Positions 60,619 through 60,792 of a stretch of DNA of 64,000 nt are shown here, piece after piece; position 1 is the first letter of the stretch, and every line of letters begins with the position of its first letter. The translations under genes were made by a program, and so were the position numbers. The notes beneath the pieces were generated by a model. That model made no database searches. It saw nothing but the letters and a program-made list of their open reading frames with translations, and was not told the DNA's origin. This DNA comes from Escherichia coli (GTDB taxonomy: Bacteria; Pseudomonadota; Gammaproteobacteria; Enterobacterales; Enterobacteriaceae): assembly GCF_003334255.1 (NCBI RefSeq), contig NZ_QOWU01000012.1; one strand, 5' to 3'.

Positions 60619-60792
60619 ATGACGACACTTATTTATTTGCAAATTCCTGTCCCTGAACCGATTCCTGGCGATCCTGTTCCAGTGCCCGATCCGATCCCTC
60701 GCCCGCAACCCATGCCTGACCCACCACCCGATGAAGAACCGATTAAATTGTCGCATCGTGAGCGTAGATCTGCGAGGATACGCGCCTGCTAA
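60619..60792 (+). CDS. Hypothetical 57-aa proline-rich small protein (MTTLIYLQIPVPEPIPGDPVPVPDPIPRPQPMPDPPPDEEPIKLSHRERRSARIRAC)
   Basis: Found by hand: ATG at 60619 preceded by GGAGGG with 5-nt spacing; stop 30 bp before dbpA. Below the 60-aa cutoff of the ORF track. Confidence 0.4.
   Translation: MTTLIYLQIPVPEPIPGDPVPVPDPIPRPQPMPDPPPDEEPIKLSHRERRSARIRAC

Follow-up and report, generated by a model that had tools for sequence, protein, structure and literature searches.

The window, that is, the whole stretch of 64,000 nucleotides of Escherichia coli DNA that was analysed, carries a short proline-rich open reading frame (ORF) between the small RNA gene fnrS and the RNA helicase gene dbpA. 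The features of the locus are listed here, with the basis for each in brackets where one applies.

60440 to 60561, plus strand: fnrS small RNA gene and its intrinsic terminator, with the stem at 60534 to 60553 and the T-run reaching 60561 (Rfam, terminator scan).
60560 to 60587, plus strand: candidate ynaL promoter, TTGCCT at 60560 to 60565, a 16-nt spacer, and TACCCT at 60582 to 60587 (comparative).
60609 to 60614, plus strand: ynaL Shine-Dalgarno sequence GGAGGG (sequence; columns 0.83 to 0.89 conserved in 81 sequences).
60619 to 60792, plus strand: ynaL coding sequence, 57 aa, 'proline-rich small protein YnaL' (ORF list, RefSeq WP_001296046.1, Pfam PF23677).
60670 to 60738, plus strand: peptide-constrained core DPVPVPDPIPRPQPMPDPPPDEE, codons 18 to 40, acidic Pro-X-Pro (period-3 conservation, dN/dS, AlphaFold2).
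60721 to 60729, plus strand: PPP triplet in DPPPD, predicted EF-P-dependent pause site (sequence).
60739 to 60757, plus strand: Block A, which is the upstream portion of the dbpA promoter and comprises the A/T-rich ATTAAAT and the -35-like TTGTCG region (ynaL codons P41 to H46).
60766 to 60790, plus strand: Block B, dbpA promoter core through the transcription start site (TSS) G60788 (ynaL codons R50 to C57), with an extended -10 TG at 60771 to 60772 and the -10 GAGGAT at 60774 to 60779.
60780 to 60787, plus strand: GC-rich 8-nt discriminator ACGCGCCT within Block B.
60811 to 60824, plus strand: dbpA initiation region, weak Shine-Dalgarno GAGA at 60811 to 60814 and GTG at 60822 to 60824.
60822 to 62195, plus strand: dbpA coding sequence, ATP-dependent RNA helicase DbpA (ORF list, RefSeq).

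In the ORF list the ATG is at 60619 on the plus strand and the stop codon ends at 60792, giving 57 codons and the product MTTLIYLQIPVPEPIPGDPVPVPDPIPRPQPMPDPPPDEEPIKLSHRERRSARIRAC. Proline accounts for 16 of the 57 residues and for 16 of the 32 between residues 10 and 41, and the PPP triplet (codons 35 to 37) is inside DPPPD. The ATG is 4 nt from GGAGGG, or 5 nt when counted from the GGAGG core, and 29 nt separate the ynaL stop from the dbpA GTG. An earlier note, made from the sequence alone, had quoted the ATG, the GGAGGG, the 57 codons, the PPP and the peptide exactly; its distances need correction, from 5 to 4 nt for the spacer from GGAGGG and from 30 to 29 nt for the gap to dbpA.

The same note had not recognised the frame as an annotated gene, which is mistaken. 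It is the annotated E. coli small-protein gene ynaL and is already known. The Pfam family PF23677, 'Protein YnaL-like', matches residues 1 to 57 over positions 1 to 57 of its 57-position model (E=2.2e-40, 136.8 bits), and in the RefSeq annotation of a K-12 derivative WP_001296046.1 is placed between zntB and dbpA. By megablast, the region 60350 to 60900 is present in 5,393 of 5,426 complete E. coli genomes. In all 25 of the records sampled down the ranking the coding sequence bears the name ynaL, 'proline-rich small protein YnaL' or 'protein YnaL'. The region matches 5,394 places in complete E. coli assemblies, six of them in records that are labelled as plasmid and not chromosome. A search of a collection of 5.8 billion proteins found 164 homologues; PF23677 is present in all of the 120 listed, and those of the 120 that have a source name are all from Enterobacteriaceae. 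The taxonomic range of ynaL is the core Enterobacteriaceae.

Translation of ynaL has been published twice, in 2016 and 2018, and with a named gene and a Pfam family there is no discovery in the frame itself. Tetracycline-arrested ribosome profiling (TetRP) gave an initiation peak at 1407332 (Nakahigashi 2016, PMC4909307, supplementary file 3, row 92), a coordinate that corresponds to 60619, the ynaL ATG, and the 57-aa sequence of that entry is identical. The ORF was named IVP7 in that study and picked for a chromosomal Venus fusion (PMC4909307). The chromosomally SPA-tagged protein was later detected by immunoblot, named YnaL, and noted to adjoin dbpA (VanOrsdel 2018, PMC6001520); the 57-aa YnaL described there, between fnrS and dbpA, is identical to the ORF in the window. 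The proposal in the earlier note that this could be a small protein is therefore borne out by the initiation peak, the tagged protein and the amino-acid-level selection measured here. Checks of the kind that it called for have long been in print, with positive results. No function has been assigned to YnaL in the literature searched, the text of the Fesenko 2024 microproteome study does not mention ynaL, and the portion of the EF-P/EfpL profiling supplement that was searched holds no ynaL row. What is added here is that only residues 18 to 40 are constrained as peptide, and that the basic tail is a by-product, conserved because the dbpA promoter is read in frame there.

The comparative sample comprised 80 dbpA loci from Enterobacteriaceae, one per species, in which the regions upstream of dbpA were searched for the frame. 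In 67 of the 80 an intact frame immediately precedes dbpA, among them Escherichia, Citrobacter, Salmonella, Enterobacter, Klebsiella, Raoultella, Kosakonia, Leclercia and Lelliottia, and the same-strand arrangement fnrS-ynaL-dbpA is common to these 67 species. The length of the ORF varies from 46 to 64 aa, and between its stop and the start of dbpA there are 14 to 63 nt. The ATG is preceded by a Shine-Dalgarno sequence in 64 of the 67 species, and PPP is likewise kept in 64, the other three (E. albertii and two Citrobacter) having DPSP. Conservation across the family was another check proposed in the earlier note; indels in the Pro-X-Pro repeats are in-frame and not frame-disrupting. A 10-codon in-frame deletion in these repeats is present in E. 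coli E69 (locus L004, about 2300 to 2470) and an in-frame duplication in a Salmonella enterica protein (P0053), both of which look like frame-preserving repeat slippage.

Five Kluyvera-type genomes have kept fnrS and dbpA and lost the proline-rich ORF. In these loci, from Kluyvera and a related MAG (L070, L072, L073, L075 and L077, about 2300 to 2500), the proline-rich part of ynaL is cleanly deleted, while fnrS, the TACCCT box, and dbpA with its promoter blocks are retained. This natural deletion indicates that dbpA is not dependent on the ORF. Both fnrS and ynaL are absent from the position in Cedecea, Dryocola, Atlantibacter, Siccibacter and one 'Enterobacter sp.'.

The placement of fnrS upstream of the frame in the earlier note agrees with an Rfam match to RF01796 at 60440 to 60557 (134.8 bits, E=1e-25). 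Transcripts of ynaL probably arise from a weak promoter that overlaps the fnrS terminator, as read-through from fnrS, or in both ways. The sequence TTGCCT-16-TACCCT is put forward, at about even odds, as a weak ynaL promoter on comparative grounds; its putative -35 and the end of the T-tract in the fnrS terminator overlap. With the pattern TTTGCC-N-TACCCT, all 58 regular-expression matches have a spacing of 17, and the Klebsiella/Raoultella group has TTTGCG-17-TACGCT. The hexamers and their exact spacing are kept in about 65 species, and the sequence of the spacer varies between genera. No TSS between fnrS and dbpA is listed by Kim 2012 (PMC3415461). If the fnrS terminator is read through, YnaL would be co-induced with FnrS under low oxygen. 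In E. coli STEC388 an IS1 (596 to 1293 of locus L082) is inserted between fnrS and ynaL, which naturally uncouples ynaL from fnrS read-through; the ynaL of this strain is annotated 12 nt longer (186 nt), with an altered 5' end.

Two kinds of constraint are present inside the ORF. Across 81 aligned sequences, conservation has a period of three from about 60655 to 60738, with codon positions 1 and 2 at about 0.85 to 0.95 and position 3 free. The substitution rates are as follows, with third-position identity computed among identical amino acids.

Core, 23 codons, D18 to E40 (60670 to 60738): dN 0.091, dS 1.39, third-position identity 0.49.
Next five codons, PIK(L/M)S: dN 0.042, dS 0.145, third-position identity 0.94.
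Tail codons, S-A-R-I-R-A: dN 0.014, dS 0.008, third-position identity 0.994.
dbpA codons 11 to 110, for comparison: dN 0.063, dS 1.59, third-position identity 0.53.

The synonymous-constraint analysis that the earlier note had suggested thus divides the frame, with a core that is conserved in amino acids (dN/dS about 0.07) and as free at synonymous sites as dbpA, and a 3' third that is frozen at synonymous sites. As a control, the +1 frame of the core DNA gives a ratio of 2.6. Stops interrupt the +2 sense frame and one of the antisense frames in all 67 species, and the remaining two antisense frames in 7 to 8 species. Therefore the core, D18 to E40, is selected as a peptide, under strong purifying selection. 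Its consensus is DPVPxPDPIPRPQPMPDPPPDEE, followed by a C-terminal third of the form PIKLSH...RSARIRAC; about 15 residues at the N-terminus are poorly conserved. In 12 of the 67 species the ORF ends at ...SHR* or ...MSR*, before the tail, and the DNA of the tail is unchanged. Since its synonymous sites are frozen, and since the DNA is kept where the ORF stops early or is absent, the last third of the frame (its last 17 codons) is selected as nucleic acid and not as peptide.

The frozen sequence is in two blocks. Block A is conserved at all three codon positions (dS 0.145, third-position identity 0.94), and Block B is about 100% conserved in the 81 sequences (dS 0.008, third-position identity 0.994). 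A TSS for dbpA has been mapped in E. coli at 1407501 (Kim 2012, PMC3415461, supplementary file 2); it is supported by 126 reads and gives a 5' UTR of 34 nt. On conversion of coordinates this TSS, which comes from one dataset, is G60788, inside ynaL codon 57; the promoter sequence listed for dbpA by Kim 2012 is identical to 60738 to 60788 of the window, and the same conversion takes the fnrS start at 1407153 (Kim 2012) to 60440. Block A spans -49 to -31 relative to the mapped TSS and is retained in Kluyvera, where there is no ORF. At the aligned position, genera that do not have ynaL have ATGACC, a 17-nt spacer, TGcTAGAAT and GCGCGCC, which make up a classic sigma-70 promoter that has an extended -10. 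The promoter element persists in Kluyvera, from which ynaL has been deleted, and is homologous in Cedecea and Siccibacter, where ynaL is absent. Because the TSS maps to 60788 and the element is homologous in genera without ynaL, the two frozen blocks are recognised as dbpA's own sigma-70 promoter. For the portion of the dataset searched, a Klebsiella TSS for KPN_01374 was not found.

The E. coli version of this promoter matches the consensus poorly, both in its -10, GAGGAT, and in the 20-nt distance, rather than 17, to TTGTCG. A strict sigma-70 consensus scan of 60300 to 60900 called no promoter, and both of the promoters discussed here fall under its thresholds. GAGGAT is fixed throughout the clade that carries ynaL, although the stronger TAGAAT of the genera without ynaL would be synonymous, both encoding Ala-Arg. 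This hints at a further constraint, either selection for a weak promoter or some other element. The same motif gives AUCU-GCGA-GGAU as well, with a GNRA-type loop on a stem of 4 bp; in the Kosakonia group the loop is GAGA. Discriminators that are GC-rich and 8 nt long are typical of promoters under growth-rate or stringent control, such as rrnB P1, and by analogy one of this kind would suit a helicase of ribosome assembly. Downstream, the dbpA GAGA is 100% conserved and its GTG 99 to 100% conserved in the 81 sequences. The first dbpA codons (ACC GCT TTT TC, 60825 to 60835) are 0.9 to 1.0 conserved, synonymous positions included, which suggests that the dbpA initiation region may also be under nucleotide-level constraint.

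The reading preferred here, at a probability of about 85%, is that ynaL is a translated gene whose core is maintained as a peptide, whose 3' third houses the dbpA promoter, and which is not a leader of the principal dbpA mRNA. The 3' third neatly illustrates how a single sequence can be coding and promoter at once. A practical consequence follows for genetics: because these codons are the dbpA promoter, knockouts of ynaL must spare 60739 to 60790, or they will also be dbpA promoter mutants. Since the principal dbpA mRNA starts past the proline codons and ynaL is not its leader, the YnaL peptide most likely acts in trans, a default reading rather than a demonstration.

The earlier note had raised the possibility of a translation-sensing leader for the dbpA helicase. 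In this explanation ynaL would act in cis, with slow, EF-P-dependent translation of the proline stretch tuning dbpA expression, by exposing or occluding the dbpA ribosome binding site or by allowing Rho to load on C-rich proline codons, as in the Salmonella proline-codon leaders mgtP and mgtL. Several features of the locus are in its favour. The ORF is directly 5' of dbpA on the same strand in 67 of the 67 species in which it was found, in a search that covered the regions upstream of dbpA, and dbpA has an invariant weak Shine-Dalgarno GAGA and a GTG start. The consecutive proline codons expected of a leader of this type are conserved, with PPP kept in 64 of 67 species, and the combination of a variable N-terminus and a conserved distal peptide resembles arrest peptides. 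Proline-codon leaders do exist (PMC3641672, PMC5299641, PMC6460261), and loss of EF-P uncouples transcription from translation at polyproline ORFs (PMC5021804).

Against this, the mapped dbpA TSS at 60788 is past every proline codon, and for this reason we infer that ynaL is not a translation-sensing leader of the principal dbpA mRNA. No intrinsic terminator was found between ynaL and dbpA in a terminator scan. The gap between the ynaL stop and the dbpA start, which ranges from 14 to 63 nt, argues against precise termination-reinitiation; Kluyvera has lost the ORF and kept both the promoter and dbpA; PSP replaces PPP in three species; and tagged YnaL accumulates to detectable levels. Taken with the lack of covariation described below, these results count against the proposal of the earlier note, and a cis-acting leader is unlikely.

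An RNA structure coupling the two genes was considered and rejected. In the minimum free energy fold of the E. coli sequence, 60750 to 60760 and the dbpA start region are paired, and all of the 54 species tested could form a 6-bp helix, GUCGCA:UGUGAC. The E. coli fold is not upheld in the consensus for these 54 species, where RNAalifold returned this invariant 6-bp helix, a 4-bp hairpin and one isolated pair, 11 pairs in total, at -3.7 kcal/mol and with no covarying pairs; the 5' arm of the helix, like the proline codons, is upstream of the TSS. Rho loading at a rut site was also rejected. The proline region has a C/G ratio of 2.2, at the 99th percentile of the window, but this follows automatically when prolines are encoded by CCN with ordinary codon preference, CCG being the commonest proline codon and G not being avoided.

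If a read-through transcript continues into dbpA, some dbpA mRNA would contain ynaL. It is improbable that there are cis effects on such a ynaL-dbpA transcript, and they would concern that fraction of the dbpA mRNA only. DbpA acts on 23S rRNA near the peptidyl-transferase centre. A further connection between the two genes is conceivable but doubtful, either through EF-P-dependent translation of DPPPD on transcripts that read through from fnrS or from a ynaL promoter, or through YnaL acting on DbpA or on the assembling 50S subunit. If true, a hard-to-make proline peptide would report the performance of the peptidyl transferase to the helicase that remodels the peptidyl-transferase region, and the fixed GAGGAT and the invariant GUCGCA:UGUGAC complementarity would be parts of the circuit.

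That the ORF is fortuitous, with non-coding constraint (from the fnrS 3' region and the dbpA promoter) or an opposite-strand gene accounting for its conservation and with its translation being noise, is hardly credible, and the codon-level analysis has already refuted it. Some points favour it, in that the conservation of the last 17 codons truly has non-coding reasons, an antisense ORF of 78 aa (60574 to 60810) overlaps ynaL, and the window has many random ORFs of like length, but the 23-codon core combines a saturated dS with a low dN and period-3 conservation in the ynaL frame, the wobble positions of the antisense ORF fall on conserved first positions of ynaL, the antisense frames are interrupted by the stops reported above, the start codon and Shine-Dalgarno sequence are conserved, and the indels of the repeat region are in-frame.

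With ynaL taken as a translated gene and not a leader, the properties of its product can be compared with those of known systems. The nearest is the YnaL family itself (PF23677, ynaL of E. coli K-12), which is identical in sequence and locus, with no difference, and is the same gene. The sequences DPP, PPP and PPD rank as strong stallers in established EF-P work. Because DPPPD combines all three, synthesis of YnaL should be EF-P-dependent, or at least its output EF-P-sensitive, a prediction made from the motif and this established knowledge.

In Salmonella, mgtP of mgtCBR and mgtL of mgtA sense proline-tRNA or EF-P activity (PMC3641672, PMC5299641, PMC6460261). Like these, ynaL is a short ORF with consecutive proline codons just 5' of a larger gene with the same orientation, and like them it is predicted to be sensitive to EF-P. 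However, mgtP and mgtL are inside the mapped 5' leader of the regulated gene and control alternative stem-loops or terminators, whereas the dbpA TSS comes after the ynaL prolines and the locus has no terminator or covarying alternative structure. The 23 conserved residues of YnaL also far exceed what a few proline codons would need.

The arrest peptides SecM and TnaC share with YnaL a variable N-terminus, a conserved distal peptide of about the length of the exit tunnel, and prolines at the putative stall site. They differ in that no conserved RNA structure ties a ynaL stall to the downstream ribosome binding site. A SecM-like 'IRA' tail (ARIRAC compared with IRAGP) was rejected as a likeness; the conservation of this segment is at the DNA level (third-position identity 0.994), and 12 of 67 species do not translate it.

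In an AlphaFold2 model built on an alignment of 32 sequences, YnaL has no helix or strand and a pTM of 0.22, with a pLDDT of about 90 over residues 21 to 40. The model suggests that YnaL is an extended, non-globular proline rod. A profile search found no relatives in the PDB. There are 7 acidic residues and 1 basic in the core and 6 basic and 1 acidic in the tail encoded by the promoter. With the proline-rich spacer of TonB (PF16031, NCBIfam NF008084) YnaL shares alternating X-Pro and an expected polyproline-II rod; unlike TonB, it has no transmembrane anchor and no C-terminal domain. Matches to TonB and other proline-rich families are compositional only (PF16031 at E=0.75; the NCBIfam TonB model at 20.8 bits against a cut-off of 315) and were set aside.

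Oncocin, Bac7 and apidaecin are proline-rich antimicrobial peptides that bind in the ribosomal exit tunnel, and they are strongly cationic. YnaL is likewise short and rich in PRP and PxP and its gene adjoins dbpA, a likeness that is no more than a lead. Its core is acidic, unlike theirs, and no sequence relationship with them was detected.

Elsewhere in the window, a 15-codon ORF on the plus strand at 59300 to 59347, 13 nt upstream of zntB, is annotated in RefSeq as 'protein YnaN'. It is possible that YnaN is a leader peptide of the zinc transporter gene zntB.
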